Virus record (IMG/VR): IMGVR_UViG_3300037400_003286
Origin: a virus
Taxonomy: Duplodnaviria; Caudoviricetes
Strand: one strand, 5' to 3'
Length of the DNA: 64,000 bases
The position numbers and the translations under genes were made by a program. The notes under the pieces are model-generated. The model had not been told where the DNA came from and did no database searches. It saw only the letters and a list, made by a program, of their open reading frames with translations. Of this stretch, positions 1 to 41,454 are shown piece after piece (the first letter of the stretch is position 1; the number at the start of each line of letters is the position of its first letter).

Positions 1-54
1 TTCAAGTTCAAGTTCATGCGCACATCTTGTGCAAATAGCACCTTCTGTAATCAT
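1..54 (-). CDS. Partial hypothetical protein (MITEGAICTRCAHELELE..., runs off window edge)
   Basis: ATG overlaps the TAA of the upstream polymerase gene (TAATG coupling); CxxC motif. Confidence 0.5.
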   Translation of the reverse strand, partial: MITEGAICTRCAHELELE

Positions 55-1562
55 TACTGTAAATTGTTTTTAAGTTTCTTTTCTCTTTCTTTTAATATAT
101 CGATCAGATGATATTTCTCTTTTTGAGCTTTAACCATCATCTTTTTATATTCCTTACGTTTAGCGAAGTAATCACTAAGTATCTTAGGAATGAAACCTTC
201 AAATTCGTTAGTGTAAACACATCCGTTTGTACACTTGATTTCATTCTCCTTCGGTATATGGTTCTTATCCTTGAAAAGTAACGTATCTGGTGATATGTTG
301 AACTGTCTCATTGTTGTAGGATAAAGAGAAGCATAGTCCAAGCAATATACGTTTCTGTATATTCCAGGAATAGGTGAAAACACGAAAGCACCTTCATATT
401 CCTTCTTTTCCTTATCTTTCTTTACAACAGGGAATACTCTGTTCTCTCTGTAAAGATATTCCGCCTGTACGATTTCGATACTCTTTGTAGAACTGTATGT
501 TGATAGCACTGGAACATTCATAAGGGAAGCCAAACCGAACATAACAGAACTTGTCTTCAGTTTCTTATCGATCTCTCTAATAAGGACACTATCGATAGCA
601 TTATAGAAAACGTATTCCTTTTTCTGCTTTTCCCACATTTCCTTGAATCCAAGCTGGTGTACAACCTTTTTAACACCAAGAACCTTATCTGCAACCCAGT
701 CAAGTTTATTACTAACCTTAGGAGAAATAGATCGATCATGTTTCTTGTATAACTCCATATAGTCATACATACACTTATGCATCGGTAGCTTAATGTTGTC
801 GGCTGCAACATCCTGTGGCTTATATGTGAACCACGTCTTCGTTGGAGATAAACTTGTTATATCAAGACCTAACTTTGGAACACGGTTATAAAGATAAGGC
901 CAGTCATATCCGAACCAGTTCCATCCTGTTACACACTCAAGTTTATCTATAAAATTAAAGAAAAGATCATTCAGTAACGAAAATTCAGATGCATGATACC
1001 TGTACACAAACTTATAATCAGTATCAAATTGCTTACAATGCTTCTTTATTTCGTCTTGAATCCATTTAATTTCATCCTGTGATAGATTAGCCAGACCTAA
1101 CACGTAAACGGTATCCTCGACAACTATAGACACTGTATTGACAGGTCTCTTTGCGTCTTTAGCCTCTGGAAATCCTTCATCATCAACGTCAACCTCAATA
1201 TCCATGAATGCTGTTTTCGGAATATACATCTGACGCATTTCCTTCAACTGCTCATTTTCTGGGAACCATCTCTCAAGATCCATTATAATTTCATGGACAC
1301 GCTGCTCCGTAAATTTATCTGTAATAGGCTTTTTTACAACTGGCTTTCCGTCCCATGACTTATATAAAGTATCTGGTGTATCATCCTTTGTTGCGTATTT
1401 CCATTGATACATCAATTCATTTGGAATCATCCAAAAGAATGGTTTAACGGTTTGATTCTTATCAACATACGATATATACAGGAATTTCTGTGCTCTACCA
1501 TATTGATCAAGCACTGGTACACCATTCCTTGTATAATCGTGTATTTCCGTGTTAACTATCAT
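54..1562 (-). CDS. polB: Family B DNA polymerase, N-terminal subunit (3'-5' exonuclease plus palm motif A; gp43A-like)
   Basis: ExoI DIEV, ExoII GWNWFGYDWPYL, ExoIII YNAIDS and motif A DYASLYP; ends in the first fingers helix (KRKEYKKMM) without motifs B and C. Confidence 0.93.
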   Translation of the reverse strand: MIVNTEIHDYTRNGVPVLDQYGRAQKFLYISYVDKNQTVKPFFWMIPNELMYQWKYATKDDTPDTLYKSWDGKPVVKKPITDKFTEQRVHEIIMDLERWFPENEQLKEMRQMYIPKTAFMDIEVDVDDEGFPEAKDAKRPVNTVSIVVEDTVYVLGLANLSQDEIKWIQDEIKKHCKQFDTDYKFVYRYHASEFSLLNDLFFNFIDKLECVTGWNWFGYDWPYLYNRVPKLGLDITSLSPTKTWFTYKPQDVAADNIKLPMHKCMYDYMELYKKHDRSISPKVSNKLDWVADKVLGVKKVVHQLGFKEMWEKQKKEYVFYNAIDSVLIREIDKKLKTSSVMFGLASLMNVPVLSTYSSTKSIEIVQAEYLYRENRVFPVVKKDKEKKEYEGAFVFSPIPGIYRNVYCLDYASLYPTTMRQFNISPDTLLFKDKNHIPKENEIKCTNGCVYTNEFEGFIPKILSDYFAKRKEYKKMMVKAQKEKYHLIDILKEREKKLKNNLQ

Positions 1563-1591
1563 TGTCTCTTTTCTGTTTTAATATATATTTT

Positions 1592-1600
1592 AGATAAATA
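1592..1600 (+). promoter_or_regulatory. Late promoter AGATAAATA
   Basis: Recurrent 9-mer upstream of structural genes; resembles the T4 late promoter TATAAATA. Confidence 0.7.
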
Positions 1601-1617
1601 TGAGTGAATATTCCTTG

Positions 1618-1634
1618 TTGCAAATATACAACTT
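1618..1634 (-). promoter_or_regulatory. Early, host-sigma promoter AAGTTGTATATTTGCAA (Bacteroidota -7 TAnnTTTG)
   Basis: One of 7 identical 17-mers, all upstream of minus-strand genes. Confidence 0.85.
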
Positions 1635-1667
1635 TATTTTGAAAGCAGAAAACAAATTAAGCAATAA

Positions 1668-2768
1668 ATGGCAAAAGACAGCAGTGCTAAAATAAATGGA
1701 AGTACAAACGAAACGTCAGATGATTCTCTAAGATTATTCTCTGCGTATGATGCTGTATGCCATGCTGAGGAACAACTTGATAGCATAGAAACTGAGGTAG
1801 AAAACGCTATACCAAAGAAAATAGATCTTTGTACCATACAAGATGTATTAGCTATCCTTGATAAAGTCCAGGGTGCTATGATGGATGTTCAGAATGTAAT
1901 GACTTCTGCTGTCACAAATGTTCTTTCTGGTGCTATGCAGGATGCTACAAACCTCGCCAATGAAGGTGTAGATGCAGCTAAGAATGCTGCAACAGATGCT
2001 GTCAACAAGAAAAAGAAAAAAGCAGAGGATTCATCATCAGCACAGCTTGCTGTTGATGCAAAATACACAAAATATCTTGCAACACAAATAATACTTAAAA
2101 AATTCCAGATTATAAAATACAGAATAGAACTTATAAAAACTGGAATACAGATAACAGTAGCAAAACTCACAAAAGGAGTCCTGACTGGAATATTAGGAGG
2201 AAAAGGATCTGCTGGAGATCCAATCAACATGACTATGGCAACAACTATGGCAACTGCTGGTGCAACAGTAAGCACAATAATGTCAGTCATTGATGCTATC
2301 GTTACGGCTATAAACAGCATAACAATTATGAATGTAAACGGTGCTGGTATGGCATTTTTCCCAACACCAAAGAGTATTATGAAAGTAGATATAAACATAG
2401 CAAATTCGAAGCAATCTACAACAAATAATATTCCAGAAGCGATCGATCAAATGATCACAGAAGCCGAAAACAAAGTAAGGGAATCAAACGGGGCCATAAA
2501 AAAATCAAAAGTGCTTGCTATGGGTGCAGCTGGTGCTGCTTCTGCACCGTCTGGTAAATTTGATCCTGGTTCATTTGGTAGTCTTCCAAAATTCGATCCA
2601 TCAATAATAAGAACAGCCGTTATGATGCTTTTCCAGATGCTTATGGATGCAGATGCTGTACCAAGATATGAAAAGCTTTCTGTTGCAAACATAAGATTCC
2701 TTGTTTTCCTTGTTACTGGATTCGAGCCTGCTGGAAAAAATACATTCGGAATACCAGGATTTCCATAA
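1668..2768 (+). CDS. Hypothetical late (probably virion) protein, helical and Ala-rich
   Basis: 366-aa ORF after a late promoter and followed by a terminator. Confidence 0.7.
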   Translation: MAKDSSAKINGSTNETSDDSLRLFSAYDAVCHAEEQLDSIETEVENAIPKKIDLCTIQDVLAILDKVQGAMMDVQNVMTSAVTNVLSGAMQDATNLANEGVDAAKNAATDAVNKKKKKAEDSSSAQLAVDAKYTKYLATQIILKKFQIIKYRIELIKTGIQITVAKLTKGVLTGILGGKGSAGDPINMTMATTMATAGATVSTIMSVIDAIVTAINSITIMNVNGAGMAFFPTPKSIMKVDINIANSKQSTTNNIPEAIDQMITEAENKVRESNGAIKKSKVLAMGAAGAASAPSGKFDPGSFGSLPKFDPSIIRTAVMMLFQMLMDADAVPRYEKLSVANIRFLVFLVTGFEPAGKNTFGIPGFP

Positions 2769-2800
2769 AATAAAAGCTACCTTAATTGGTAGCTTTATTT
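2768..2800. terminator. Bidirectional intrinsic terminator
   Basis: AAAGCTACC-ttaatt-GGTAGCTTT with A/T tails between convergent genes. Confidence 0.75.
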
Positions 2801-3651
2801 ATAAGTGCATAGTATAAATTATATGTGTATGAATTTGTGTTGATCTTTTCATATGAAGAGTCATCCTTAAGCCATATAATCCTTCTTCCTATAACCTTGA
2901 ATCCGATAGGTTCAAGAGCTAATTGATACAAACTTAACTGTAACTGATATACATTGAAGCTGCAATTAAGAAGTTCATTAAAAGGATAAAGCATTCGTTC
3001 ACCTCTGAAGTTTTTATACAGATCCTTGTTGGTTTTATAATCGAAGATTACGAATCCGCTTTTATCTGATGTTTTATTATCTAATTCAGCATCATAATAA
3101 AACAGAAGATCAAACGTTCCAGAATATCCTAAATCTTCTCTGCAAACCTGATTCTCTGAAGCTATAGGAACAAAACATTGTGGTAAATCATTCCAGAATT
3201 TAACAACAGCATCTTCCTTTTCATTTATACTGTTGAATTCATCACCATTCAACCTGTCTTTGAAGTTCGGAAGGATCTTGTCATCCTGGTATGTCATAAA
3301 ATAGAAACAACTTTCACCGAATTCATGTACATTTGTTCCGTTATCACATGCAGTATACTTTATAACCGTCCATTGTTCAAGTATCTGTTGCTGTGTCATC
3401 TGATAGTATTTTGAAGTAGGATCGTTGTAATACTTCTCATACATCTCTTGAGATTTTGCAGCAGCATCAAATTTTGGTGTAAACAGATGTGTTACATTGC
3501 TTACACTCTCAAGTTGTTTTCCATTGTAATAATATCTATGACCTTCATTAACAAAAACGAGACCCTGATAGCTTCTCTTTATTAGGTCTCGCATTTGTTG
3601 GTATTTGTCAAGATTACTTATGTTTTTCCACTTTCCTCTTTTTAGTATCAT
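2782..3651 (-). CDS. PD-(D/E)XK exonuclease (Cas4/RecB-like phage nuclease)
   Basis: GTNVH, GTFDLL, IFDYKT and YQLQLSLY motifs. Confidence 0.8.
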   Translation of the reverse strand: MILKRGKWKNISNLDKYQQMRDLIKRSYQGLVFVNEGHRYYYNGKQLESVSNVTHLFTPKFDAAAKSQEMYEKYYNDPTSKYYQMTQQQILEQWTVIKYTACDNGTNVHEFGESCFYFMTYQDDKILPNFKDRLNGDEFNSINEKEDAVVKFWNDLPQCFVPIASENQVCREDLGYSGTFDLLFYYDAELDNKTSDKSGFVIFDYKTNKDLYKNFRGERMLYPFNELLNCSFNVYQLQLSLYQLALEPIGFKVIGRRIIWLKDDSSYEKINTNSYTYNLYYALINKATN

Positions 3652-5089: not shown

Positions 5090-5116
5090 TTTAATTCTAT
5101 GTTCTTAACTTTAACG

Positions 5117-8267: not shown

Positions 8268-8284
8268 TTGCAAATATACAACTT
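8268..8284 (-). promoter_or_regulatory. Early Bacteroidota-type promoter (TTTG-N19-TATATTTG)
   Basis: 17-mer copy with a -33 TTTG 19 nt upstream. Confidence 0.85.
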
Positions 8285-8390: not shown

Positions 8391-8420
8391 AATTAAGCTG
8401 GAAAAATATCCAGCTTAATT
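8391..8420 (-). terminator. Intrinsic terminator after the baseplate wedge gene
   Basis: AATTAAGCTGGA...TCCAGCTTAATT inverted repeat. Confidence 0.7.
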
Positions 8421-10277
8421 TATATTTGTTTTTCCTCTTAATGTTATGTTTATAGGACCGACCAGAGCATTAATGTCATCCTCATAATAGACATCGTTTG
8501 CTGATGTAAATCCTCCTCTGAACAAAGGCTGGATGTCATTTATGTCAAGCATGTTTCCAAGTCTGTCCGTAACGCTTCTCTTTAATACTATATCACCGTA
8601 TTGATCAATTCCATAATTACCCTTACCGAAGTAATTCTGGTTGTTTTTATCAGCGTCAAAAAAAACAGATACAGAGTCAACACCGTCAACACCCTCAACT
8701 ATTCTTATAATATCGGATACTGGCATTCTGTCTCTTCTTACATTTGAAATAAGATAATCAGAAACAGCGGATACAATTGAACTCTTAACAGAATTGAAAT
8801 CATAATTACTCCACATCTGTATGAATATGTTCATTGCAAATTTAACATAGACTGGATCTATAATCTGGTTATCAACAGTTATAATCTTTTGACCAGAATT
8901 GTCAATAAGACTTATGATATTTGATTTCTCATCTTCTGTCAACTTGAATCTATCTTCAGAACACGTAAAATAATTCTCTCCAGAACTCAATCTCTTTGTT
9001 ATGTCTGGTATAAGATACAGATAGATAACATTATCATCAAGCTTAGACTCATCATACTTTATTCTAAGAGCATCAAGCTCAACCTTCATCTGATTCAACT
9101 GATTAAGAATATCCTGTGCATCTTTTGATGAAACACCAGTAAGAGCAACCTGATCAGAATAAAGCTGCTTTGTAGTATTGTATTCTGCTTTCTTTGTTGT
9201 ATATTGTTCCTCTATTTTTATATCCTCCTTTGTGTTGAATCCAGAGAACACATCAACAATAGAGAATAGATTTAACTTGGACAAGAATGTTTTGTAATTG
9301 TCAACATTTGCAAAAACAAAGTTCCTGGAAGCATGAGGTGCTAACTGACGAGTCATCTCTATACTTTCACCGTTTGATCCGAATAGAATATCAGAAGAAG
9401 ATGACAATGTGTATATGCTGTTAAGATCAACATAATCATCGTTTATATCATATCCACCATCGGCGAAAGCCCAATAGTTCTCATCGCCAACGTGTTCAAC
9501 ATTACCATTATCTCCACCACACACAATATATTCGCAAAGAATTGTTGATCCTAATACTGGTATTTTTCCATTATTACCAGTACCGAAGAAAACATCTATT
9601 CCTCCGTTCATACTTGTTCTTACAATACAAGCCTCTTGCTCATATCCCATATCAAGTATAGACTTAACTGTTTCCCATCTCTTTCCGTTAACATAAACGT
9701 TAAGGAAGAAATCATCTATAATAGAATCAGTCTTATTGGCAAAGTTAAATGACTGCAATGCTTCTCCAGTACCAGTACCCTGCTGGTATTTAAGTTCACC
9801 CTGGATAATAGGTATCTCAACCTTAGAATCATAAGCACCAACAGTTATCTGCATTGTATTCTGAGGTAAAATAGCAAGATATGTAAGACCGTTTGATCCG
9901 TTTGTAATCTTTGTATAATTCTTTATGTATATCGTCTGTCCTTCATATTCAGATGACATGTTGTACGTCATATACAATGAACCCCTTGCTGCAACACCGA
10001 GAGAAGGTGAATGACCAGTCAATTCAGCCAAGCCTCTGATCGATCTTGCCTGATACGCCGTTTTGATGTTCATCTCAGTTATTGAATTCTCGACATAGAA
10101 TAGTATCATTCTTCCGAGATTTACAGTAACATTAACGATCTGAGCAAACGGTGAGGCTGATGTGAACTCCCTATCATTTGCAGCATAAACAGTTTTAAGG
10201 TAATTGACAACATCTTCATACATCTGTGTCAATCCTATTCTGTTCGTCTTGAATATTTTAAAATCTAACTTTGCCAT
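8415..10277 (-). CDS. Baseplate wedge subunit (T4 gp6-like)
   Basis: EMNIKTAYQARSIRGLAELTGH, VFFGTGNNGKIP, GSNGESIE and SDIIRIVEGVDGV motifs typical of gp6/baseplate J. Confidence 0.8.
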   Translation of the reverse strand: MAKLDFKIFKTNRIGLTQMYEDVVNYLKTVYAANDREFTSASPFAQIVNVTVNLGRMILFYVENSITEMNIKTAYQARSIRGLAELTGHSPSLGVAARGSLYMTYNMSSEYEGQTIYIKNYTKITNGSNGLTYLAILPQNTMQITVGAYDSKVEIPIIQGELKYQQGTGTGEALQSFNFANKTDSIIDDFFLNVYVNGKRWETVKSILDMGYEQEACIVRTSMNGGIDVFFGTGNNGKIPVLGSTILCEYIVCGGDNGNVEHVGDENYWAFADGGYDINDDYVDLNSIYTLSSSSDILFGSNGESIEMTRQLAPHASRNFVFANVDNYKTFLSKLNLFSIVDVFSGFNTKEDIKIEEQYTTKKAEYNTTKQLYSDQVALTGVSSKDAQDILNQLNQMKVELDALRIKYDESKLDDNVIYLYLIPDITKRLSSGENYFTCSEDRFKLTEDEKSNIISLIDNSGQKIITVDNQIIDPVYVKFAMNIFIQMWSNYDFNSVKSSIVSAVSDYLISNVRRDRMPVSDIIRIVEGVDGVDSVSVFFDADKNNQNYFGKGNYGIDQYGDIVLKRSVTDRLGNMLDINDIQPLFRGGFTSANDVYYEDDINALVGPINITLRGKTNIN

Positions 10278-10291
10278 TTATTGTGTATTTA

Positions 10292-13200
10292 TTAAGCTAT
10301 TTTAAAAGATGTTGGTATCTTAACTTCCATTATACCGCTATCACATGCGCTATTATCTGGAGTGAGTGTAAGCGTACTATTTTTTATTGCATTAACTATT
10401 GCTTCAGCAAGAGCGACAGGATCAAACGCTGTTGTTTGATTATTAACCTGCTGATTAACAGTAGTGTTATTAGGTGTTCCAGGAGTTTGTGGTGTGTACT
10501 TTTGTTGTGGTGTTGGTGTATATTCAGGAGCCTTATATGTTTGAGCATTCTTAATAAGGTTATTAAGAGACTCAATTGCATTCTTACCACCATTAACATC
10601 CTCAACTACAGCCTTTATTCTCTTCTCGAATTCATCAAGTGCTTTATTTCTCTTATCCTCATCCTTAATAAGAATAGTATCAAGATCCTTGAATGCCGTT
10701 TTGAGGTTTTCAACACTCTTTGAGAATGCGTCAACATTTGGCTTACTCTTAGGCATCTTCTTATCAACAACATCGGTCATAAATTTTACAATCGATTTGC
10801 TGTTAGTAAGAATTCTTTCACCTGTAAGATTTGACATGCTTCCAGCAATCTTCAGAACAGATTGTATAACAGCAACCTTTGTGCTCATGGTTTCAACATC
10901 AATTGCTGAAATTGAAGTTATAAGCTGTGAATTTGCATAAACAATAGCATCTGAATTTGATCTTATTAAATCAGCCTTTATCTTTTCACTTGACATTTCT
11001 ACAGCAGACTTAACCATATCATTGATAGGCTTTAGCAACTTATCAAGAGATGTACTCTGGAAGAAATTAATATCTTTCCAGCTATCTGCATCTTTATATA
11101 CAGCGGTTACGAAAGAAGTGATAAGATCAGCAATAACATTACCTGTTCTCTTTACATCAACCTCTGGTCCAGTTTGTATATTACCATCCTTATCAACGTA
11201 AATCTTTCTCAGTGTTCCGTTTGATCCTGGCATTAATCCAGAAACCATATCAACAAACTTACAGATAGGTTCGATGATAACACCAAGAATACCAGCAACT
11301 TCTCTTACAGAATCTGCTCTCTTGTTTGTTTGACCAAACAATCCCTCAAAGAATGTTCTATCACCATAAATCAGTTCAGCCCAATTCTCAGTAACTTCTT
11401 TCTTATAAAGTTCTGAAACGAATGATGTAATAGCACCAGCTATGACAACAGCCACATTTTTGATGTTTACTGGATAACCTATCTTAACTTCACCCTTTTC
11501 ATCTATACTAACGGTGCAAAGAGTATCTGGATCATCACCAGTTGTAAATCCTGTCAACATCTCAACGAATTTAGAGATAGGTTCAGTTATTGTAGAAAGA
11601 ACTTCAAATATCTCTTTAGCATTATACATATTTCGTACTTCCTCGAAACTGTATTGACTGTTTTCAACAAAAGCCTTAACAGTCTGTGCTATAACTGTTG
11701 CGAGATTCTTTATATCAACTGGTTCACCATAACGCACTTCACCAGTTTCCTTGTCTATTGAAAGTATCTGTCGTAATCTTCCAGAATCATCAACTATGCC
11801 TACAATCTGAGCGATCTTAGATATTGATTCAGCCACAGTCAATATGCTTCCAACAAGTTCAGCCAGAAGTGCATATTTAGCCATCATTTTAAGCATTGTG
11901 AATATACCAATGTCTACACTGAAATTATCGGAATTGATATTCTTCAAAATAGCTGGAATACCTACAGTTAGCGTATCTTTAATCTTTTCTGCTCCACCAG
12001 CTTCCTCGATTGCTTTTGATAAATTAACAATCTGATGTACAACACCAATCACAAGAAGAGAGAATCCAGCAACAGCAAGCATTCCTGGAGTACCAAGAGC
12101 AATAGGTATTATAAGTAATGCCATTGCACCAGCAAGCAAACCAAATGTACCAAGCATAGCAGACATTCCGAGAACATCCATCTCAAGCTCTTTCCAGTTA
12201 GTACCAGACTCTGTTATGGCGTTATGTAAATTAACAACAAGATGAGCTATTCCTATAGCACCAACCATCAACAGTTCAACAGGAACAAGAGCGATCGATC
12301 CAAGTAATACTGGCGCAAATATAAGTCCAAATGCAGCAGCCAATAATCCAAATGTACCAACTATTCCAGCAAGACCGAGAACATCAAGCTCAAGATCCAT
12401 CCATCCGATTCCAGCTTCTTCTTTTACATTGTGTAATCCGATAAGAAGATGTGTTACACCTATAGCACCAGCTATAAGCAATTCAACAGGAACAAGCGCA
12501 ACAACACCTAAAAGTATTTCTGGTGCAATGAAACTTGCAGCAGCAGCCAACAGGCCAAATGCTGTTATGATACCCATTACACCAAGTACATCAAGATAAA
12601 GATCACCCCATGTTATATCATTCTGTGTCTTTACATAATCTAATGCTACAACCAATCCTGCTACAGCTATAGCACCAGCAGCCAACAATTCAATCATAGC
12701 TACTGCTGGTATACCGACCGAAATATACTGTTGTAGTTGTCCAGCAACAGCAGCCAAAGCACCAAATGCAACGATTATAGACATAGATAGTCCGATAGCT
12801 GCAAGTATATCAAGTTCGTGTCCTGTTGTATAATCTGCCAATTGTTTTGCAACAAAGACAACAGCCATAGCACCAAGAGCAAGACCCTCAAGAATAGCCA
12901 ACGAAATCATAGCTTGCTGTGACGATTTCAATACCTGAGATGCGGCCCATCCGATACCTATCAATAATCCCATTACTGCAACAACAGAACCAAGACCTAT
13001 TAGTATAGACTTATAATTTTCAGCAGCATAATCGCCCAGGAATTTAGCAGCAACTATAAGGATCATCGATACAAATGTCAATGCAAATATTGCGGCATAT
13101 GATTGGATCACTTCTCTCGACATAGCAGCCTTACCAGCAAGACCTACAAGCCAAAATACGGCTGTCAACAATATCATTGTAGCACCAACAATTGCAATAC

Positions 13201-14077
13201 CTTTCATCAAAGGTTCCCAACCACCAAGAGCTTCAATAGCCATTCCAAGACCAAAACAAGCAGCAACAAGTATAACAGATGCAAGCATCATTGTCATGAT
13301 GTCTTTCATCGCAGAAAATGCGCCAACGCCTTTGATAACTTTACCAGCAAGTCCTGTTAACAGTATAACAGCAGTTGTTGTCAAAAGAACAGCACCCAAT
13401 ACCATCAACCCACCAAGAATAATATCTCTTGTTGGTCCAATCATAAGTATCAATCCGAGTCCCATACAAAGTCCAACAAACAAAGTGGCCTTCACGACAA
13501 CTTTCATAAGAGGATCGATCGCCTTTGTTACGTCATTAAGCTTCTTTATCCTATCAGTAACGTTAGACATTTTTGAGACAGTTGTTAATATAGCATCTAT
13601 TGCTTTTATTACGCCATTTGCCAATTTTAATCCTAACGTTGCTATTGGAGCCTTTACAACAAGTCCAGCAGCACCGTTAAGTGACTTAGCCAATATATCA
13701 AGTGATTCAACAAGTATCTTCGCATTGTTTGCAGCATCCTTGTTATTCTTAGCACATTCAGAAAGCTTATTAACACTTTTAATAACCTGATCAAGAACCT
13801 TAGTAAAACTCTTTATCTTAGATCCAGACAATTTAGAAATACTAAGAATGCTTGGTGAAAGTGTATTAAGCATACTTACAACTTCACCTATGCTAGCTTT
13901 TGATATACTTGGTTTTGCAATATCGGCAGCAGGATTTACATCAGCATTAGTAGTAACATTACCGCGTGACAATTTAGCAGTAGCCGCTTCTCCAGATCCG
14001 TTTTGCGGAGCCATAGATTTAGCTATCTCCTTTACGGTCATATTAATACTTGATAATATGTCGATAGTATTTTGCAC
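10292..14077 (-). CDS. Tape-measure-like protein with hydrophobic repeats
   Basis: 1261 aa, Ala/Gly/Leu-rich helical repeats, located between the tube and baseplate genes. Confidence 0.65.
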   Translation of the reverse strand: MQNTIDILSSINMTVKEIAKSMAPQNGSGEAATAKLSRGNVTTNADVNPAADIAKPSISKASIGEVVSMLNTLSPSILSISKLSGSKIKSFTKVLDQVIKSVNKLSECAKNNKDAANNAKILVESLDILAKSLNGAAGLVVKAPIATLGLKLANGVIKAIDAILTTVSKMSNVTDRIKKLNDVTKAIDPLMKVVVKATLFVGLCMGLGLILMIGPTRDIILGGLMVLGAVLLTTTAVILLTGLAGKVIKGVGAFSAMKDIMTMMLASVILVAACFGLGMAIEALGGWEPLMKGIAIVGATMILLTAVFWLVGLAGKAAMSREVIQSYAAIFALTFVSMILIVAAKFLGDYAAENYKSILIGLGSVVAVMGLLIGIGWAASQVLKSSQQAMISLAILEGLALGAMAVVFVAKQLADYTTGHELDILAAIGLSMSIIVAFGALAAVAGQLQQYISVGIPAVAMIELLAAGAIAVAGLVVALDYVKTQNDITWGDLYLDVLGVMGIITAFGLLAAAASFIAPEILLGVVALVPVELLIAGAIGVTHLLIGLHNVKEEAGIGWMDLELDVLGLAGIVGTFGLLAAAFGLIFAPVLLGSIALVPVELLMVGAIGIAHLVVNLHNAITESGTNWKELEMDVLGMSAMLGTFGLLAGAMALLIIPIALGTPGMLAVAGFSLLVIGVVHQIVNLSKAIEEAGGAEKIKDTLTVGIPAILKNINSDNFSVDIGIFTMLKMMAKYALLAELVGSILTVAESISKIAQIVGIVDDSGRLRQILSIDKETGEVRYGEPVDIKNLATVIAQTVKAFVENSQYSFEEVRNMYNAKEIFEVLSTITEPISKFVEMLTGFTTGDDPDTLCTVSIDEKGEVKIGYPVNIKNVAVVIAGAITSFVSELYKKEVTENWAELIYGDRTFFEGLFGQTNKRADSVREVAGILGVIIEPICKFVDMVSGLMPGSNGTLRKIYVDKDGNIQTGPEVDVKRTGNVIADLITSFVTAVYKDADSWKDINFFQSTSLDKLLKPINDMVKSAVEMSSEKIKADLIRSNSDAIVYANSQLITSISAIDVETMSTKVAVIQSVLKIAGSMSNLTGERILTNSKSIVKFMTDVVDKKMPKSKPNVDAFSKSVENLKTAFKDLDTILIKDEDKRNKALDEFEKRIKAVVEDVNGGKNAIESLNNLIKNAQTYKAPEYTPTPQQKYTPQTPGTPNNTTVNQQVNNQTTAFDPVALAEAIVNAIKNSTLTLTPDNSACDSGIMEVKIPTSFKIA
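11998..12616 (-). repeat. Three tandem 69-aa repeats within the tape-measure-like protein
   Basis: W-x-[DE]-L-x-[LM]-DVLG...FGLLA...[EA]-[ES]-[AS]-G units. Confidence 0.8.
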
Positions 14078-14099
14078 TAGTTTGATCTAAACATTTTAC

Positions 14100-14108
14100 T
14101 ATTTATCT
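14100..14108 (-). promoter_or_regulatory. Late promoter AGATAAATA
   Basis: Recurrent motif upstream of the tape-measure-like gene. Confidence 0.7.
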
Positions 14109-14170
14109 GAAAAATCCTAATATGGCGATTTTTAATCTCCGTGAGATTAAATTTTATACAACGTCTAAAT

Positions 14171-14207
14171 AAAAAACAAAAATGGACCACGATTCGTGAT
14201 CCATTTT
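14171..14207 (-). terminator. Intrinsic terminator after the tail tube gene
   Basis: AAAATGGA-CCACGATTCGTGA-TCCATTTT hairpin with a U-tract on the minus strand. Confidence 0.7.
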
Positions 14208-14249
14208 CATCAAATTAAAATATAATTGTAACTAGTTAAAGTCAGTCTA

Positions 14250-14882
14250 TTACAACATTACTTCATCCCAGTAATCACAACGTAATGTGTATCCAGTAAC
14301 CTTATAAAGTGTATTCTTCTGTGAATAATCAAGCTGTGGAACAGGAAGATTAGTAATTGGGAATACATTATAAAGAGTCCACTGCCAGAAAGGTTGGTTA
14401 GCCTTATCGTGCATTGTTACTGTTACAGTTGGAGCAACATAGTTTACCTTCAATCCTTGTCTACCAGTAAGAGGATCCCAGATAAGATCGTTCCATCTTC
14501 TAAGAATCTTTAAGGTATACATGTCTGGTGAACCAGCAGCAGAACCTCTGACGTTGATCTCAAAGTCGAGCTTCACATCAATGTAAGTCTGGTCAGTACC
14601 AGAGTTAGCGAAGCTTCGATCAGCGAATTTATAGTGCTGAAGTGTTGCACCAGGAACCTTGTTTGTATCCAATCCATCAACCTTCTGAACACCTTCAAGT
14701 AACAGGTTCTTATCATCGTCTGAAACACCGCCTGTGCCTGTCAAGCCCTTTGGAAGCTGGAATTCAACAGTAAACAAGTTAAGATAAACAGGCTCGTACA
14801 TCTCCATAGAGACGCGAGATGTCTTAAAGTGAGGAAGACCCATCAGTCCGACGGAAGTCAATCCAGTGCCATCATTTGCCAT
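14250..14882 (-). CDS. Tail tube protein (gp19-like)
   Basis: Follows the sheath gene; LRRWNDLIWDPLTG, WTLYNVFP and LRCDYW motifs. Confidence 0.85.
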   Translation of the reverse strand: MANDGTGLTSVGLMGLPHFKTSRVSMEMYEPVYLNLFTVEFQLPKGLTGTGGVSDDDKNLLLEGVQKVDGLDTNKVPGATLQHYKFADRSFANSGTDQTYIDVKLDFEINVRGSAAGSPDMYTLKILRRWNDLIWDPLTGRQGLKVNYVAPTVTVTMHDKANQPFWQWTLYNVFPITNLPVPQLDYSQKNTLYKVTGYTLRCDYWDEVML

Positions 14883-14908
14883 ATCTATTAATCTTATTTT
14901 CTTTTATT

Positions 14909-17413
14909 TTAAGCGGTCGTTGAACGGTTGAGTGTGATAGGAACAACGATCTTTTCCATATTTTGTGAAATCCAAACACCGATATCAACGATACAGAACT
15001 TATTGTCGATAACTTCCTTGTCGTTGTTGAGATCGTCGCACTCAATCTCATACTTAACAAGAGCACCAGAGTCTTTCATAGCACTCAGTATTGGATTGAT
15101 ACGAGTAATAATCTCCGCACGGGTTGTAGGTATATTGTATGTGAACACATATTCATCAAGTACAGCCTTACAGCTAATCTGAATTGTGTTGAGAAGTTCT
15201 CTTACATGCAAGAAACTCAAGTCAGAGTTAACAAGCTGGTGTGCTGTTCTGTCACCATAGATAAGGATGTTACCGTTTCTATTGATGATAGGATTGATAC
15301 CGAATGGTTCAAGATAACCTCTGTCTGTATCATCGAAATCATACTCAAGACCAACAATCTGGACATTGTTAATAATACCGTTCATGTTAGCAACAGTCTT
15401 ATAAGGATCACCGCCTGTAAACTTATTCATGAATGTATTAGATACATCTGCTGCTGGAGGAACGAGGATTGTTCTCTGTCCGTCTGCATACTTGAAGAAT
15501 GGAGCGAAGATACCAACATGGTCTGCGCCATTTTCAAAATCAGGAAGAGTAAATGACTTAGTGTCAACAGGATAAACAAGATCCTGATTACCACCCTGAG
15601 GAATGTATGCTACATCAAATGTAGGACGTGGATCGCCCATTGACTTATCCCAGTTATCACCGAAGAATGGAGCATCAGACTGAGCAAACTGAGTCATAGA
15701 AGGCGCATTGATAAGTGCTGTACAGTGCTTCTTGTCGAGAGCAAGGTTAGCAAGATGTACCTTACCAGCGCAATTCTCACCAAGACCATAAGCCATTGTA
15801 TCTACAAGATAACGGAAATCGATAGAGTCATTGTTAAGAAGTCCTCTGCGGATACCCTTATCGTTCAACATAGCATAGATCTTTTCAACACCAGCTTCAG
15901 GATCGATATTACCTTCCTTATCATATCCAGGCATATGTCTGTTGCAAATCTTCAATCCACTAAGAGCAAACAGAGTCAAAGTAGAATACATGCTCTTGTA
16001 TGACTTGTGGATCTCAACATTCATCTGTGCGCTGTCACCAAGAACAACATCAACAGCAGTGAAACGATAAATGATTTCACTTGTCTCATCATTCAGGTTA
16101 GTACGTGTACCACGTTTCTTGATGATACGTGTCATCAATCCGTTCTGAGCACGAACATAGTCGCCGATATTAACATTCAATCCATCAACCTCGCTCAATG
16201 TGAACTGTGTAGAAGAATCGATATTCTCATCATCAACAGTTTCATAAACCTTGATATACTCTGTAGGATTATCAATATTGTAAGACATGATAGTGAAAGG
16301 AACAGAAGCATCAGTTGTCAGCTTATGTCCAACCATATCAGGAATGAAGTTTGCAACAGTATCTCCAGTATCTCCAGCATCCTCATTATAAATGCCATCA
16401 CCTACCTCATCATAGAAGAATGTAGAGCCATCAAGAGCAATAAGGTCAAGTGCCTTTTGATTGATACCGAACATAAGTCCAGTCTCGTTGCACTTCTTAT
16501 TAACAAGATAGTCAATAGACCTCATGTTTCCTTGCTTGTCTGTGAAGTTAGGAAGGATACATCCTGTCCAAGAACCAATCACATTAACAGCATCAAGACG
16601 CAAGAACTTAGCAAGCTTATCCTTGAGAAGACCTTCCTCAGAGAAGTATCCAGACCATACAACATCGCTAGCAAACGAAGCGTACTTAGACTTGTCCCAG
16701 TTACCAGCAATTGCGATAACATCAACAAAGTAGTCAGATACGTAATCATTTGGATTGATCCACTTGTAAGGAATATCATCCTGATTTCCGTAATAATCAA
16801 GGAATGTTACGTTATATCCGTTAACTGATTCTGATTTTCTTACAATAACAGAAATGTCTCTTGTTCCGCAGTTAGAAACACCGAACAAAGCGGCTTTCTC
16901 AATGGTATCAACATCAACAGAGGCATCAACACCATTCAACATTTCCTCAGAACCATTTATAAATGAATTTTCTACGAATGCATCATCATCGGCGATCCAG
17001 AAACGAGTTCTGTCATACATATAAGCATAAGGTGCTTTGGTTGTATGTGATTCGATCTTAGGATCAAGAGATAACAGTGTATATCCAACAGTATCCTTAT
17101 TGCTTTCCTTGTCACTGGTATCAACATTGAGCATGTTCATCACGTACACAGGTGATTTCTGCAACATTGTACGGATGTTTCTATTTGTCCAGCATCCCCT
17201 GCGTTCCATCTTTCTGTCGATTGGACCAAACAGCTTATTACACTCGTCTGAGTTAGCAATATAAACAGGACGGTTGAAAGGTCCCTGCATATTAAAACCA
17301 ACTGCCATACGAAGTGCTGTCTGCACATTGGATGACGAAATTATAGAATTATCAATCTCAATGAAATAAACACCAGAAGCAGGATAGTCTGAAAAATTAA
17401 TTTTTTGTGACAT
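14909..17413 (-). CDS. Tail sheath protein (gp18-like)
   Basis: SGVYFIEIDNS, GPFNRPV, GINPI, IYGDRT and LHVRELL; sheath C-terminal domain. Confidence 0.92.
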   Translation of the reverse strand: MSQKINFSDYPASGVYFIEIDNSIISSSNVQTALRMAVGFNMQGPFNRPVYIANSDECNKLFGPIDRKMERRGCWTNRNIRTMLQKSPVYVMNMLNVDTSDKESNKDTVGYTLLSLDPKIESHTTKAPYAYMYDRTRFWIADDDAFVENSFINGSEEMLNGVDASVDVDTIEKAALFGVSNCGTRDISVIVRKSESVNGYNVTFLDYYGNQDDIPYKWINPNDYVSDYFVDVIAIAGNWDKSKYASFASDVVWSGYFSEEGLLKDKLAKFLRLDAVNVIGSWTGCILPNFTDKQGNMRSIDYLVNKKCNETGLMFGINQKALDLIALDGSTFFYDEVGDGIYNEDAGDTGDTVANFIPDMVGHKLTTDASVPFTIMSYNIDNPTEYIKVYETVDDENIDSSTQFTLSEVDGLNVNIGDYVRAQNGLMTRIIKKRGTRTNLNDETSEIIYRFTAVDVVLGDSAQMNVEIHKSYKSMYSTLTLFALSGLKICNRHMPGYDKEGNIDPEAGVEKIYAMLNDKGIRRGLLNNDSIDFRYLVDTMAYGLGENCAGKVHLANLALDKKHCTALINAPSMTQFAQSDAPFFGDNWDKSMGDPRPTFDVAYIPQGGNQDLVYPVDTKSFTLPDFENGADHVGIFAPFFKYADGQRTILVPPAADVSNTFMNKFTGGDPYKTVANMNGIINNVQIVGLEYDFDDTDRGYLEPFGINPIINRNGNILIYGDRTAHQLVNSDLSFLHVRELLNTIQISCKAVLDEYVFTYNIPTTRAEIITRINPILSAMKDSGALVKYEIECDDLNNDKEVIDNKFCIVDIGVWISQNMEKIVVPITLNRSTTA

Positions 17414-20185: not shown

Positions 20186-20187
20186 AT

Positions 20188-21552
20188 TTAAAATAAACTT
20201 GGTGTATATGTAAGTGTCGGAGGAATTTCAAAATATCCCATAGCAACAACTATACGATTCAACGGACTTAATAACATCTTCTCAAACTGAATATCAATAT
20301 CGATTGCTGGCGCAAATTCAATTGGGAAAGAATCAGGAACAAAGCCGAACACTGTATCTTCACCAGTATAATAGAATCTTACCTTTTCTCCAGACTTTAA
20401 TAGTGAATACTTACTCTTGTATTTCTTTCCCTTGTTGAACAGCATATTGTTATAAACTGCTGCCGCCCTAACATGGATAGGAATAGGAAGCTTATCGTTT
20501 GTCAGATATTCATTACCGTTCTCATCAACCTTTGTCTTAAACTGGAAATATTCAATTTCTGGTGTCTTGTCGTTCTTGACAAAATTCTCATAGTTTGATA
20601 TTCCTTTTGTAATGGAAATATCATTAGGATTCTGCATTACGAAACGTTTCTTGATTTCCTTCAGCTTTGATACTATCTCACTAAGTGTTGGTTTTCTTCC
20701 AGTATTCAGAATACCCATTACATAATTGACGAAAGTCTTCATTTCCTCACGACAATAGTCTGTAGTCGTTCCCTTGACAACATCGAAACCAGTATATGTA
20801 ATATGTTCAAGAGGTTCAAATCTTGCACCAGAATCGATCCATTCAACATCACACATATAATTCTTCTTTGCAAGCATGATGATTGTACGGGAAATCTTCT
20901 CAAGTTCAAACTTCTCGAAGTTGTTCTTACAGTGATTTCTTTCAGCATAATTATCGAACTTGTCATCCATATATGATTCAAGAATCTCCTCATAGAAAGC
21001 AAGGTCAAATTCAAGCTGTTGATCCTCTGGAATATAACAAGCATCAATCAAAGGCTGAAGTGTAATATATGCAGAATTATGAACAAGTATGTCATTTGCA
21101 AAGAACGTATGGGTGTCATCACCCATTTCAATGTCATACACATATTCATTATCATACTCACCTGTACATAAGCATGATACGACTTTATCGGATCCTTCAA
21201 CAATATCACCATACATTACTTCCAATGATAATACATAATCATCTGGATGTATCTCGCAAGGTTTAACTTTATATAGTTTATTGTCTCTCAAAACCATCAT
21301 AGAATGATCATTGGTAACTGTAACAGAATGACCGAATCTCGTTGTTATAGTCCACTTTGGTTTTGATACCTTATGGCGAATTATACGCTTTACGTCACCA
21401 TAGTATAATTGAGAAATGTTTGTAAGGGTCGATCCTTTGAAATTCAATACCTTATCATCAGTATAAACAGATTCATGTCCAGCAAGTGTGGACTCTCCTT
21501 TATTAGATGAACGTATCTTTCTTATTGATACTATTTTTTCAAATTGACTCAT
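20188..21552 (-). CDS. polB: Split-intein C fragment fused to the PolB C-terminal extein (palm/thumb)
   Basis: TNDH block B, VYDIE...FFANDILVHN then SAY; followed by FELE, AKKNY, GFDVVK and PIHVRAA of gp43-like polymerases. Confidence 0.92.
   Translation of the reverse strand: MSQFEKIVSIRKIRSSNKGESTLAGHESVYTDDKVLNFKGSTLTNISQLYYGDVKRIIRHKVSKPKWTITTRFGHSVTVTNDHSMMVLRDNKLYKVKPCEIHPDDYVLSLEVMYGDIVEGSDKVVSCLCTGEYDNEYVYDIEMGDDTHTFFANDILVHNSAYITLQPLIDACYIPEDQQLEFDLAFYEEILESYMDDKFDNYAERNHCKNNFEKFELEKISRTIIMLAKKNYMCDVEWIDSGARFEPLEHITYTGFDVVKGTTTDYCREEMKTFVNYVMGILNTGRKPTLSEIVSKLKEIKKRFVMQNPNDISITKGISNYENFVKNDKTPEIEYFQFKTKVDENGNEYLTNDKLPIPIHVRAAAVYNNMLFNKGKKYKSKYSLLKSGEKVRFYYTGEDTVFGFVPDSFPIEFAPAIDIDIQFEKMLLSPLNRIVVAMGYFEIPPTLTYTPSLF
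21076..21552 (-). mobile_element. IntC of split intein 2 (159 aa; blocks B, F and G; Ser+1)
   Basis: RHKV, TxxH and terminal HN followed by S. Confidence 0.9.
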
Positions 21553-22723
21553 TATTTATATATTTTTTAATCTCAGATAAAATACTATTTCTAACCTTTC
21601 TCTTATTATGTTTATAGTCATCCTCCCAAACAGTTATAATTTTGACACCTATAGTGTCTTTTATATCATTTTCTCTCTGTTTTTCAGATTCCCATATATC
21701 TCCAACGATTCTACCGTTTTGTTCATATAACCCATCAAAAATATCAGTTTCTTTATATACTCCTGGTTTTGGATGAAATTTTATACCATTAAACTCTATA
21801 CATATATTTAAAGTCTTATCATAAAAATCTAAATAATATAAATGATTATTTTTTGTATAAACCTCATATTCATAATTATATTCAGCAAAATATATATCAT
21901 GATCTTTAAATATATCATCTGTTATCAAAGACTTAAACAATTCTTGAGAAATAATAGAATACGATTTGTTTATATATCTGGCATTATTGAAATTATTCCA
22001 TTTATTTAATCCTTCTTCTTCACCATATGTAGTTATAAAATATTCTCTTGTATTACTATAAGCCTCTTTCTCTCTATATTTGTTCCATTTTTCAAGACCT
22101 TCCTTCTCACCATATCTTTTTATAAAATTATCAAGAGTACACGATCTACTTTTATTATAATTATCAAATTCCTCTTCAGTCATTCCATATTTTTCATGCT
22201 TATATTCATATGTGTTTGTTATTCTCTGCTTTTCCAGATAAATATCCCATCTTTTTTGCCCTTCTTCTTCACCATATTTTTTAATAAATGATTCCAAAGA
22301 ACGTATACACAATTCATTATTTTTTTGATTTATTTCTTCCTCTGGAATATCAAATGCATATTGTGCATATATTGTTGGTCTATTAAAAACCCTAGATTTA
22401 TTTTTTATATCAATCCATTCTTTAAAATGTTTTGACATGCATTTTTCACAAACACATAATTTATAAACCTTTCCATTTATCTCTTTTGTTGATATTGGTG
22501 ATGTACCCATATAAACTTTTGGATAATCTTGATACGCTCCTCTAAACCCAACATTCTCATAATACAGTTCACCGCCACAATATTTACACATATTCCTATT
22601 TTCATATATAGGATTATCTTTTAACAAATCTGCAAATTTTTCATATGATTTATTATTATTAAAATCTTCACATCTTTGTTTATTATAATAATTAACTTTT
22701 TTCCCTGATAATACGTCTGGCAT
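21539..22723 (-). CDS. Free-standing homing endonuclease (Zn finger, YGEEEG repeats, Vsr/DUF559-like PD-(D/E)XK domain)
   Basis: CKYC...CVCEKC; KKYGEEEG-type repeats; YLDFY...CIEFNGIKFH...TVWEDD; AT-rich; lies between the split-intein halves. Confidence 0.8.
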   Translation of the reverse strand: MPDVLSGKKVNYYNKQRCEDFNNNKSYEKFADLLKDNPIYENRNMCKYCGGELYYENVGFRGAYQDYPKVYMGTSPISTKEINGKVYKLCVCEKCMSKHFKEWIDIKNKSRVFNRPTIYAQYAFDIPEEEINQKNNELCIRSLESFIKKYGEEEGQKRWDIYLEKQRITNTYEYKHEKYGMTEEEFDNYNKSRSCTLDNFIKRYGEKEGLEKWNKYREKEAYSNTREYFITTYGEEEGLNKWNNFNNARYINKSYSIISQELFKSLITDDIFKDHDIYFAEYNYEYEVYTKNNHLYYLDFYDKTLNICIEFNGIKFHPKPGVYKETDIFDGLYEQNGRIVGDIWESEKQRENDIKDTIGVKIITVWEDDYKHNKRKVRNSILSEIKKYINNESI

Positions 22724-22794
22724 AATAAATTATAAATAGTTTTATTTATTATATTTATTTACAATTTTATGGTGGCTCCTGCATATTTTTGTAA

Positions 22795-23910
22795 TTAAGT
22801 AAAAATTTCATCGTTATATAATATATCATCAGGATATACATAGATGATTTTATCCGATCTTTTTACTTTAACTTTATCGTTCTTATTATATCGTATAATT
22901 TTTCCAGATTCTGTTTTTATTTCAAAAACATCTTTTTCAGAATTTTCTTCATAAAAATCTTCTATAGTAATACCATCAACATGTTTCTTTGTACGAATAA
23001 TAGTATCTTTTGAAACAGAGTCTGTATTATGAACAAGAATACCGTTTGCAAAGAAATTATGATAATTATCTGTATCAGAATCCACTTCAATATCGTAAAC
23101 ATACGCAACATTTCTATTTGATACACACTCTACAGAAAATCCAGAAACACAAATAAGATCATTTTCACCTTTCAAAAATAAAAATGTATCTTTATCTATA
23201 TCATCAGGTTTAACTTCCTTAAAATTAGTATCATAATATTTTAATAAAGAATGATCTTCTGTACAAACAACATAAGTATCATCATTAAACACTTTATATA
23301 ATCTTTTGTTTACTTTGTGTCGCATAACATACTTTATTGGCTTCTTGTCAATCTTTCCAGTAATTAAATCGACACAATATATGCTTCTGTTAGATTTTAC
23401 ACGTTCTTTACCAAACTGATCGATCTCTATATCTGTTCCTTCATTGAAAAGATCTGCAATCATCATAAAAGAATCATCCGAAAGTGTTATCAAACTATCA
23501 CCAACAACGGAATCACCATATACCTGAACGGTGTCTAATTTGATCGTATTATTTTTAGCACACTCAAGGAATTGATCATATTTGAATGCATCACCGAATA
23601 TGTTTCTCAATCTATCAGCGATACGTTTATGACCCTCATAGTCCTGGTTCCAATGATTGTTTATATAATCATTGATTTCAATAACCGAAAACTTAATCAG
23701 ATCCTGTCCCTGAAGAGTAATAGACTCTGCAATGTCTGAATCAGCAAGGTTAAAGAATGCCGTACCGAACACACCATATACACTATTAATAAACGTCTTT
23801 GCGGACAACTGCATAGTGTTATAGTATTCCTCTTCGTTCTCAAGATGATCGATCCTCGATTTAAGCTCTTCAATCGAACAAGTTTCTGGATTAAAATTCT
23901 GTTCTTCCAT
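22795..23910 (-). CDS. polB: PolB middle piece (fingers motif B to YGD), cis mini-intein 1, TD, and IntN of split intein 2
   Basis: QLSAKTFINSVYG, ESITLQGQ, YGD|SVVGDS...VHN|TD|SVSKDT. Confidence 0.92.
   Translation of the reverse strand: MEEQNFNPETCSIEELKSRIDHLENEEEYYNTMQLSAKTFINSVYGVFGTAFFNLADSDIAESITLQGQDLIKFSVIEINDYINNHWNQDYEGHKRIADRLRNIFGDAFKYDQFLECAKNNTIKLDTVQVYGDSVVGDSLITLSDDSFMMIADLFNEGTDIEIDQFGKERVKSNRSIYCVDLITGKIDKKPIKYVMRHKVNKRLYKVFNDDTYVVCTEDHSLLKYYDTNFKEVKPDDIDKDTFLFLKGENDLICVSGFSVECVSNRNVAYVYDIEVDSDTDNYHNFFANGILVHNTDSVSKDTIIRTKKHVDGITIEDFYEENSEKDVFEIKTESGKIIRYNKNDKVKVKRSDKIIYVYPDDILYNDEIFT
22798..23019 (-). mobile_element. IntN of split intein 2 (74 aa, Ser1)
   Basis: Block A SVSKDTIIRT directly after the extein TD; no TxxH. 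Confidence 0.85.
23026..23511 (-). mobile_element. Mini-intein 1 (162 aa, Ser1/Thr+1, no endonuclease)
   Basis: SVVGDSLI, RHKV, TEDH, VYDIEV and FFANGILVHN followed by T. Confidence 0.92.
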
Positions 23911-41451: not shown

Positions 41452-41454
41452 CTG

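Follow-up and report, generated by a model that had tools for sequence, protein, structure and literature searches.

How does a phage obtain one DNA polymerase when the coding sequence of the enzyme lies in pieces at two distant places? The question is raised by a 64,000-nucleotide stretch of viral DNA (IMG/VR record IMGVR_UViG_3300037400_003286; hereafter the window), in which an initial annotation had placed a family B DNA polymerase (PolB) of the T4 gp43 type in three open reading frames (ORFs) at two loci. We recovered all three ORFs on the minus strand. In the reading that we favour, with a probability of about 0.82, their three primary products would be rebuilt as one family B polymerase by one non-covalent pairing, one cis-splicing and one trans-splicing event, the second of two inteins having been broken by an endonuclease cassette. 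The window itself is best explained as a large T4-like gut phage of a Bacteroidota host, related to the Lak megaphages.

The assembly would proceed as follows. Subunit A (502 amino acids (aa); exonuclease, motif A, basic first finger helix) would be expressed from its own early/middle promoter, and a single transcript of the B locus would give an N-terminal piece of subunit B (B-N), a homing endonuclease and a C-terminal piece (B-C). A 162-aa mini-intein at YGD/TDS (slashes mark insertion points) would leave B-N in cis. A mobile cassette, composed of a tail, a Vsr-like endonuclease gene and a leader, would have cut intein 2 into fragments of 26 and 146 aa, which would reassemble, trans-splice TD to S and restore YGDTDS in a 430-aa subunit B. 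This subunit would finally bind A non-covalently through a shared palm and antiparallel, oppositely charged finger helices, giving a 932-aa gp43-like enzyme.

Three open reading frames tile a gp43-like polymerase

The polymerase pieces are:

54..1562, minus strand: PolB subunit A (gp43A-like, 502 aa), with N-terminal and exonuclease domains, palm motif A and first finger helix (PF03104, PF00136)
22795..23910, minus strand: B-N ORF, 371 aa (Pfam DNA_pol_B 144-228 and Intein_splicing)
23512..23910, minus strand: B N-extein (B1), 133 aa, with second finger helix, motif B KTFINSVYG and palm to YGD
23020..23025, minus strand: middle extein, the two residues TD
20188..21552, minus strand: B-C ORF, 454 aa (Pfam Intein_splicing and DNA_pol_B 261-384)
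20191..21075, minus strand: B C-extein (B2), 295 aa, in which Ser+1 completes YGDTDS, followed by the remaining palm (KKNY) and the thumb

Nearly all transcription in this region is from the minus strand, and the B locus lies upstream of the A locus on it, at a distance of 18.6 kb. Pfam and alignment to RB69 gp43 agreed with what had been proposed for each ORF. The ORF at 54..1562 matches DNA_pol_B_exo1 and DNA_pol_B positions 18-150, carries Exo I (DIE, 121), Exo II (NWFGYD, 215), Exo III (YNAID, 320) and motif A (DYASLYP, 409), and ends in the first finger helix; its similarity to RB69 gp43 has an E value of 5e-34 (phmmer, query 117-482 on RB69 110-495). The ORF at 22795..23910 restarts at the second finger helix with KTFINSVYG, and that at 20188..21552 provides the remaining palm and the thumb.

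The alignment to RB69 gp43 had been set beforehand as the test, overlap or big gaps speaking against a single enzyme. In local BLAST, residues 116-492 of A fell on RB69 109-501, residues 32-84 of B1 on 554-606 and residues 1-169 of B2 on 624-792. The three pieces tile gp43 with zero overlap, leaving a gap at the finger tip, where there are ~12 residues fewer than in RB69. The motifs of a family B polymerase of T4/RB69 gp43 type (Exo I/II/III, A, B, C and KKxY) are all present in gp43 order, motif C (YGDTDS) being restored across the inteins as YGD+TD+S.

Removal of S134..N295 and of both intein 2 fragments leaves 133+2+295 = 430 aa for subunit B, as had been calculated. A database search with B-C returned natural homologues that lack inteins, are exactly 430 aa long and carry YGDTDSAYITLQP uninterrupted. 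B1 plus TD covers residues 1-135 of these proteins and B2 residues 136-430; identity is 84-93% and the match is gapless from end to end. The predicted 430-aa product is a natural protein. Sequence and relatives alike support the earlier total of 932 aa, an ordinary gp43 size. No further PolB fragment was found within the 64-kb window; the expectation that no intact partner exists elsewhere in the genome holds for the window and extends beyond it by analogy.

Two inteins two residues apart, one contiguous and one split

The intein segments are:

23026..23511, minus strand: intein 1, a contiguous 162-aa mini-intein at YGD/TDS (pol-c site), with Ser1, TEDH, terminal HN and Thr+1 (PF14890)
22942..23019, minus strand: N-fragment proper of intein 2, 26 aa (block A/N1, Ser1)
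21076..21513, minus strand: C-fragment of intein 2, 146 aa, with NX motif RH, block B TNDH, blocks F and G and terminal HN

Intein 1 matches the PolB intein of PDB 9hth over its full length (phmmer, E 2e-16) and has the features of a class 1 intein, namely Ser1, a TxxH block B, HN, a +1 nucleophile and a complete HINT domain. Intein 2 sits at YGDTD/S, two residues past intein 1, a site also used by the intein of Tenacibaculum phage PTm1. Its state is best seen against G001, a 76% identical relative in which intein 2 is a contiguous 171-aa mini-intein in a 601-aa B protein, without intein 1 and without the endonuclease. Relative to this allele, B-N ends at FYEEN (intein residue 26) and B-C resumes at the next residues. 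The 26-aa N-terminal fragment (IntN) is collinear with the start of the G001 intein and with that of a canonical IntN in the contig L212, and the C-terminal fragment (IntC) is 76% identical to the G001 intein, with PDB matches to 9hth (E 2e-13) and to the PolB16 intein 8cpo (E 5e-6). The break is clean and falls ahead of the NX and block B motifs, and is therefore an atypical split: IntN ends before block B, blocks B, F and G are on IntC, and two genes encode the fragments.

An intein of this kind is known to be active. The PolB16 OarG intein from a sheep gut metagenome (PDB 8cpn/8cpo), with an IntN of 15 aa, trans-splices in vitro and in E. coli (PMC10189870). It shares with intein 2 the gene, the site GDTD/S, Ser1, Ser+1, the class 1 motifs, NX Arg-His and an atypical split near the N-terminus that leaves block B on the C-fragment. 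Its short IntN has no tail, whereas the window has 26 aa plus a 48-aa tail, and a ~13-aa leader on the C side, and the two inteins are only moderately similar in sequence; such an added tail sets the IntN of the window apart from known atypically split inteins (PolB16 OarG, AceL-TerL type). From the activity of PolB16 and from ratios of nonsynonymous to synonymous substitution rates (dN/dS) of 0.03-0.18, we infer that intein 2 trans-splices. The motifs, the relatives and the selection analysis are thus consistent with the claim of one cis-splicing and one trans-splicing intein.

The two subunit B pieces might also assemble without splicing of intein 2, its halves serving as a dimerisation module only, in the manner of the Aeh1 NrdA fragments, which join non-covalently via element-derived interaction domains (PMC3045599). 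This is very hard to reconcile with a break inside the metal-binding catalytic loop YGDTD/S, where ~230 intein residues would stay in the active site, and with the conservation of Ser1, HN and Ser+1; we therefore give it very little credence.

In close relatives, the state of the site can be read from the length of the B product: 430 aa where it is intein-free, 601 aa with a single contiguous intein and 762-769 aa with two, both contiguous. Where the gene is split, the C piece measures 330-344 aa after a canonical break and 437-455 aa after an atypical one.

A predicted Vsr-like endonuclease gene inside the second intein

The segments between the two halves of intein 2 are:

21539..22723, minus strand: free-standing Vsr-like (I-Bth0305I/EDxHD-type) homing endonuclease, 394 aa, between B-N and B-C
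22798..22941, minus strand: 48-aa tail of B-N, with N3/block-B-like strands without TxxH, apparently brought in with the endonuclease cassette
21514..21552, minus strand: ~13-aa leader of B-C, like the first strand of a canonical IntC

The initial annotation was silent on the endonuclease gene at 21539..22723, the stop of which overlaps the B-C start by 14 nt. Intein halves that flank a free-standing endonuclease ORF on the same strand characterise fractured genes (Dassa et al. 2009), and this is the arrangement found here. The product is similar to the PTm1 'VSR endonuclease' (BLASTP, E 1e-18), the ORF of which separates PolB intein halves, and 40% identical to the ORF between the intein halves of the megaphage Lak-B2. 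It belongs to phrog_22677 and counts at least 223 homologues, of which many lie on contigs of 150-530 kb. Nothing significant was found in Pfam even at E 10, nor any sequence match in the PDB, and the full-length model (predicted local distance difference test, pLDDT, 90.9) had no Foldseek match at E <=0.001. Residues 248-394 of the model aligned to 3r3p and to Vsr (1cw0) with Z 9.7 each (VIA-align), the former with a root-mean-square deviation of 2.9 over 97/98 residues. D299, E310 and H317 are invariant in 36 homologues, and their spacing of 11 and 7 is that of D51/F62/H69 in Vsr (Dassa et al. 2009), the Glu standing where Vsr has Phe62. In modelled fold and active-site spacing the protein is Vsr-like, and a dN/dS of 0.09-0.19 argues that it is a working endonuclease.

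The ends of the cassette point to its source. The 48-aa tail aligns with the last 45 residues of the canonical IntN of PTm1 (block B region) with a score of 61; shuffled controls gave a mean of 26.5 (standard deviation 4.5), with 0/2000 as good (z about 7.7). An origin of the tail as a duplicate of the intein's own block B was rejected, the score of 61 with the PTm1 IntN exceeding those with its own IntC (39) and with the G001 intein (28). The leader, MSQFEKIVSIRKI, resembles that of L212, MTEQFEDIVFCECI, and the leaders of L215 and L216; its similarity to IntC starts, taken alone, is not significant (188/2000 shuffles). L212, a 6.9-kb contig, combines intein 1 with a canonically split intein 2 and an endonuclease of the same family, and may show what the cassette donor looked like. 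The atypical layout recurs in L210, L211, L214, L215 and L216, with open frames and with splicing and catalytic residues kept; the tails of these five lineages are 48-62 aa long, with the strand pattern kept and TxxH gone.

The order N-extein-IntN, same-strand Vsr-like endonuclease, IntC-C-extein is common to the window, to the fractured genes of Dassa et al. (2009, PMC2677866), to PTm1 and to Lak-B2. In PTm1, Lak-B2 and L212, however, the break is canonical: it follows block B and leaves about 111-118 aa to IntN and about 43 aa to IntC, whereas the cassette of the window follows residue 26 and bears relics of an IntN end and an IntC start. On the simplest reading, the end of an IntN, a stop, the endonuclease gene and the start of an IntC moved from a canonical fractured intein to an ectopic position within a contiguous one. 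A more specific proposal, offered tentatively since we put the odds somewhat against it, is that the tail-endonuclease-leader cassette was lifted from a canonical fractured intein with both strands of the IntN-IntC interface and landed ectopically after residue 26, and that these relic strands, with structure kept and catalytic residues lost, now clasp the 26-aa IntN to its partner. If true, this would provide a concrete evolutionary route to atypically split inteins, and a natural case in which the mobile element that breaks a gene also provides what holds the pieces together.

The same relics could mean that intein 2 still works in the canonical mode, the N1 strand and the tail forming a short IntN and the last ~45 residues of B-C the IntC, with the NX/block B part looped out. 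The homology of the tail to a canonical IntN end, its strand pattern kept in six lineages and the likeness of the leader to the first strand of a canonical IntC would fit. However, TxxH is lost from the tail in 6/6 lineages and NX Arg-His occurs only in B-C, the NX His being essential in Ser1 inteins (PMC10189870). Moreover, the NX/block B part of B-C is 70-79% conserved, with a dN/dS of about 0.1, and the tail only 29-31% between the window and L210 or L211. We consider a canonical mode improbable and retain the atypically split intein, with block B working from B-C.

A structured RNA as the joining mechanism was rejected as well: neither a group I intron nor any other Rfam family was found in positions 1-26000, and the spacer between B-N and the endonuclease gene showed no significant folding (z -0.41). 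As a separate observation, in L210, a 172-kb relative, a TnpB/Cas12f-like gene and a small resolvase gene (1129-2280) lie just upstream of B-N, where ThyX otherwise sits.

Selection and mosaicism at the B locus

The dN/dS values per segment, which are rough since dS is saturated in several comparisons, were:

Exteins: 0.02-0.09
IntN: 0.03-0.18
IntC: 0.09-0.16
Endonuclease: 0.09-0.19
Intein 1: about 0.35
Tail: 0.25-0.47
Leader: about 1

This pattern argues that polymerase, split intein and endonuclease all work, and the tail of B-N may be mildly constrained.

The segments of the locus also differ in ancestry. For tail, endonuclease and leader, L210 groups with L211 (77-87% identity) and the window stands apart (31-72%), whereas for IntN, IntC and exteins the window groups with L211. 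Between the window and L211, which comes from pig gut, the C-extein is nearly identical (dS 0.08) and the intein and endonuclease region has a dS above 1. This segment-wise divergence favours a cassette that is a discrete unit. The phylogeny of the endonuclease is discordant with its flanks, and the mosaicism in 20191-23910 suggests recent swapping of intein and endonuclease alleles between phages.

Could the B locus instead be a decaying relic, in which the break killed intein 2 and another polymerase, encoded elsewhere in the phage or by the host, replicates the genome? The search for PolB pieces covered the 64-kb window of the genome, IntN carries a degenerate block-B-like tail, and Iyer et al. 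(PMC7824862) report that phages of this group have a minimal split Pol III alpha in addition, all of which would accommodate such a relic. Nevertheless, the exteins and both intein fragments are under purifying selection; layout, frames and catalytic residues are intact in six lineages; complete Lak genomes have a single PolB set, itself fractured; and the comparably split PolB16 intein is active at the same site. A relic appears highly unlikely to us, and we continue to regard the B locus as the source of a working subunit.

The finger-tip split across the clade

The nearest named relatives of the window are the Prevotella Lak megaphages (36% identity), then uncultured huge phages, Chryseobacterium phage MA9V and PTm1. 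Closer relatives, at 60-76% identity, are found in IMG/VR, and megablast of positions 1-24000 gave zero matches in the phages collection. A stops 94 aa past motif A in the window, and B begins 46 aa ahead of the end of motif B. In 11 relatives the corresponding distances are 86-94 aa for the end of A and 41-53 aa for the start of B, and gp43A of Aeromonas phage Aes508 ends at the equivalent place. Intein blocks are absent from both free ends at the finger tip, which belong to two separate cistrons. The distance between these cistrons varies widely. In PTm1, A is followed by two genes and then by B, at a spacing of 2 kb. The spacing is about 7 kb in Lak-B and about 220 kb in Lak-A, where the two genes are on opposite strands. 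In a more distant IMG/VR clade A comes first, with B 16-22 kb away, whereas in G001, as in the window, B comes first and the distance is about 20 kb. In G004 it exceeds 45 kb, or the contig lacks the partner. Exactly one place for A and one for B exist in complete circular Lak genomes. Judging from these sequences, the split of the finger tip into unlinked genes, in either order, is an old, clade-wide condition of Lak, PTm1 and many IMG/VR jumbo phages; our search found no published description of a clade-wide unlinked PolB split in Lak/PTm1-like phages. The same comparison bears on whether the separation of A and B might have arisen in the assembly of a metagenomic contig. The window does appear to be metagenome-derived, and exact look-ups of its proteins gave no match, but the order B, sheath, wedge, A recurs in an independent 220-kb contig at 76-80% identity, and complete circular Lak genomes, like many other contigs, have A and B unlinked. 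An artefact is thus barely credible, and we treat the separation of the two loci as real.

How would the two subunits meet? The tail of A has a net charge of +2 to +7 in 11 phages and the head of B one of -2 to -10 in 8 phages, against +1 and -1 in the equivalent contiguous stretches of RB69; this opposite charge fits a pairing of antiparallel finger helices. The initial annotation had proposed a single non-covalent coiled-coil association. A non-covalent bridge at the finger tip is supported, but the finger coiled coil alone would be insufficient because the palm is built from both chains, with motif A in A and motif C in B. From RB69 structures, the A-B interface must far exceed a coiled coil.

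Lak-B2 (L209, MK250021.1 509500-524500) also drew our attention for its own coding: its PolB-A frame is 331 aa long under table 11 and 526 aa with TAG read as Gln, and its B gene carries a canonical fractured intein together with an endonuclease of the family found in the window. Its GenBank entry is without annotation.

A probable shared promoter class at the two loci

The transcription signals are:

1618..1634, minus strand: 17-mer promoter core (TAtaTTTG -7 box), 56 nt ahead of the start codon of subunit A
23936..23952, minus strand: identical 17-mer promoter core, 25 nt ahead of the start codon of B-N
8268..8284, 26173-26189, 30230-30246, 41455-41471 and 44931-44947, all minus strand: further exact copies of the 17-mer
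23970..23994, minus strand: terminator-like hairpin that ends the upstream methyltransferase/ThyX unit, just before the B promoter

The 17-mer, AAGTTGTATATTTGCAA, occurs seven times in the window without a mismatch, always on the minus strand, against 0.82 matches expected at <=3 mismatches. Within it TATATTTG is invariant in 7/7 copies, and an invariant TTT lies ~19 nt upstream. Primary-sigma promoters of Bacteroidota have a -7 box TAnnTTTG and a -33 TTTG about 19-21 nt upstream, a shape into which the copies would fit; the host of the window is assigned from relatives alone. Each of the seven copies stands ahead of non-structural genes, in operons of DNA metabolism: PolB-A, an S1-domain/exonuclease operon, PolB-B, a DNA methyltransferase with ThyX, an IMPDH-like gene with an SbcD-like exonuclease, a helicase, and an MFS transporter with a NAD-dependent ligase. 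None of the seven lies ahead of sheath, tube, baseplate or portal genes. The 17-mer probably defines an early/middle promoter class read by the host primary sigma factor. A TAnnTTTGCAA core is likewise found ahead of A and B in G001; a scan of viral_contigs with a 15-mer promoter core matched at least 118 unrelated contigs and was uninformative.

Identical promoters had been proposed to co-regulate the two loci. The same exact 17-mer is indeed present at 1618 and 23936, but with seven copies in the window it suggests membership of one early/middle regulon rather than a private pair. No convincing promoter or terminator signal was detected between B-N, the endonuclease gene and B-C, which are most likely on one transcript.

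Three further observations concern genes at these promoters. The copy at 41455-41471 falls inside the first codons of a helicase ORF listed with a TTG start (39667-41484, minus strand), whose true start is probably a downstream ATG. The MFS transporter gene (43706-44881, minus strand) and the IMPDH/GMP-reductase-like gene (28783-29919, minus strand), each directly behind an early promoter copy, are unusual phage auxiliaries. On the plus strand, a 366-aa ORF without family match (1668-2768) diverges from the subunit A promoter and overlaps minus-strand ORFs of 169 and 81 aa.

Evidence for and against a reassembled polymerase

The anatomy of the loci, the tiling of gp43, the homology of each piece, the conservation of catalytic residues, the purifying selection and every intermediate state in relatives are directly observed, and together they carry the reading of a reassembled enzyme. 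Several points weigh against it. Splicing, complex formation, co-transcription and promoter timing are all deduced from sequence, and the single B transcript only from the lack of a recognisable promoter or terminator between its ORFs. The 48-aa block-B-like tail on IntN could disturb folding, and the two inteins, with only two residues between them, might get in each other's way. Beyond the window, a second polymerase is made improbable only by analogy with complete Lak genomes and with G001 (60% complete), and the saturation of dS makes the selection values approximate.

Relation to known systems and implications

The notion that gp43A/gp43B splits at the fingers occur in some T4-like phages has a published precedent in Aeromonas phages (Petrov and Karam, cited by Dassa et al. 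2009, PMC2677866). Phages 44RR, 25, Aes508 and Aes123 share with the window a finger-tip split into two polypeptides with no intein there. The likeness goes further in Aes508, where according to the GenBank annotation gp43B comes as two fragments, B-1 (N-intein) and B-2 (C-intein), separated by a VSR-domain ORF; its gp43 is annotated as a three-polypeptide enzyme, likewise needing one non-covalent and one trans-splicing step. In the Aeromonas phages, however, the pieces are adjacent within 2-3 kb, A then B, whereas they are 2-220 kb apart in the Lak/PTm1-like clade. The window further differs from them in having B first, an extra cis intein and an atypical second split, and in having no group I intron.

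Intein 1 lies at exactly YGD/TDS, like the pol-c inteins of archaeal PolB and Mimivirus PolB and the split PolB intein of Nanoarchaeum equitans (PMC549080). It differs in being a phage mini-intein without an endonuclease domain, with Ser1 and Thr+1 and with a second intein two residues on. Outside phages, Methanothermobacter thermautotrophicus makes its PolB from two unlinked genes by non-covalent assembly (cited in PMC2677866), the difference being that this system is archaeal and cellular.

None of the elements of the locus is without precedent: gp43 splits, inteins at the pol-c site, split inteins of PolB (Aes123, PolB16, Nanoarchaeum) and Vsr-like fractured genes are all known. Distinct here are the unlinked halves, the inteins two residues apart, the atypical second break and the relics of a canonical split, so that what is unusual is the combination and the manner in which the second intein broke. 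Across a whole clade of gut and environmental jumbo phages, Lak included, the essential polymerase is routinely encoded by two genes with unlinked halves, and automatic annotation and polymerase-based phylogenies of these phages should allow for a split PolB. The relatives hold every stage of invasion at one site (intein-free, one contiguous, two contiguous, canonical split, atypical split) and, because all stages exist as natural alleles, the gene-breaking model of Dassa and the origin of atypical splits become testable. The intein pair is also a possible source of split inteins with Ser/Thr rather than Cys junction nucleophiles, and its two-residue tandem arrangement could be useful for protein ligation.

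Genes between and beyond the two loci

The tail genes between the loci (8415..17413, minus strand), assigned with PHROGs and Pfam, are:

8415-10277, minus strand: baseplate wedge
10292-14077, minus strand: unknown 1261-aa ORF
14250-14882, minus strand: tail tube
14909-17413, minus strand: sheath

The entire tail module had been said to lie between the two PolB loci. Sheath, tube and baseplate wedge do lie there, but the statement goes too far. The interval also holds genes for an exonuclease, a phosphoesterase, an S1-domain protein and a DUF488 protein, besides several unknowns. Sheath, tube and wedge follow the same order between B and A in G001, whereas in G009 they do not lie between the two, and their position is best described as lineage-specific synteny rather than as a designed arrangement. 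The 1261-aa ORF, between baseplate wedge and tail tube, has no Pfam or PHROG match.

Beyond the loci, the plus strand holds two very large ORFs, at 32310-37178 (1622 aa) and 55600-61545 (1981 aa). On the minus strand, 38578-39339 encodes a phage sigma-70 family factor with regions 2 and 4, a candidate switch to late transcription.

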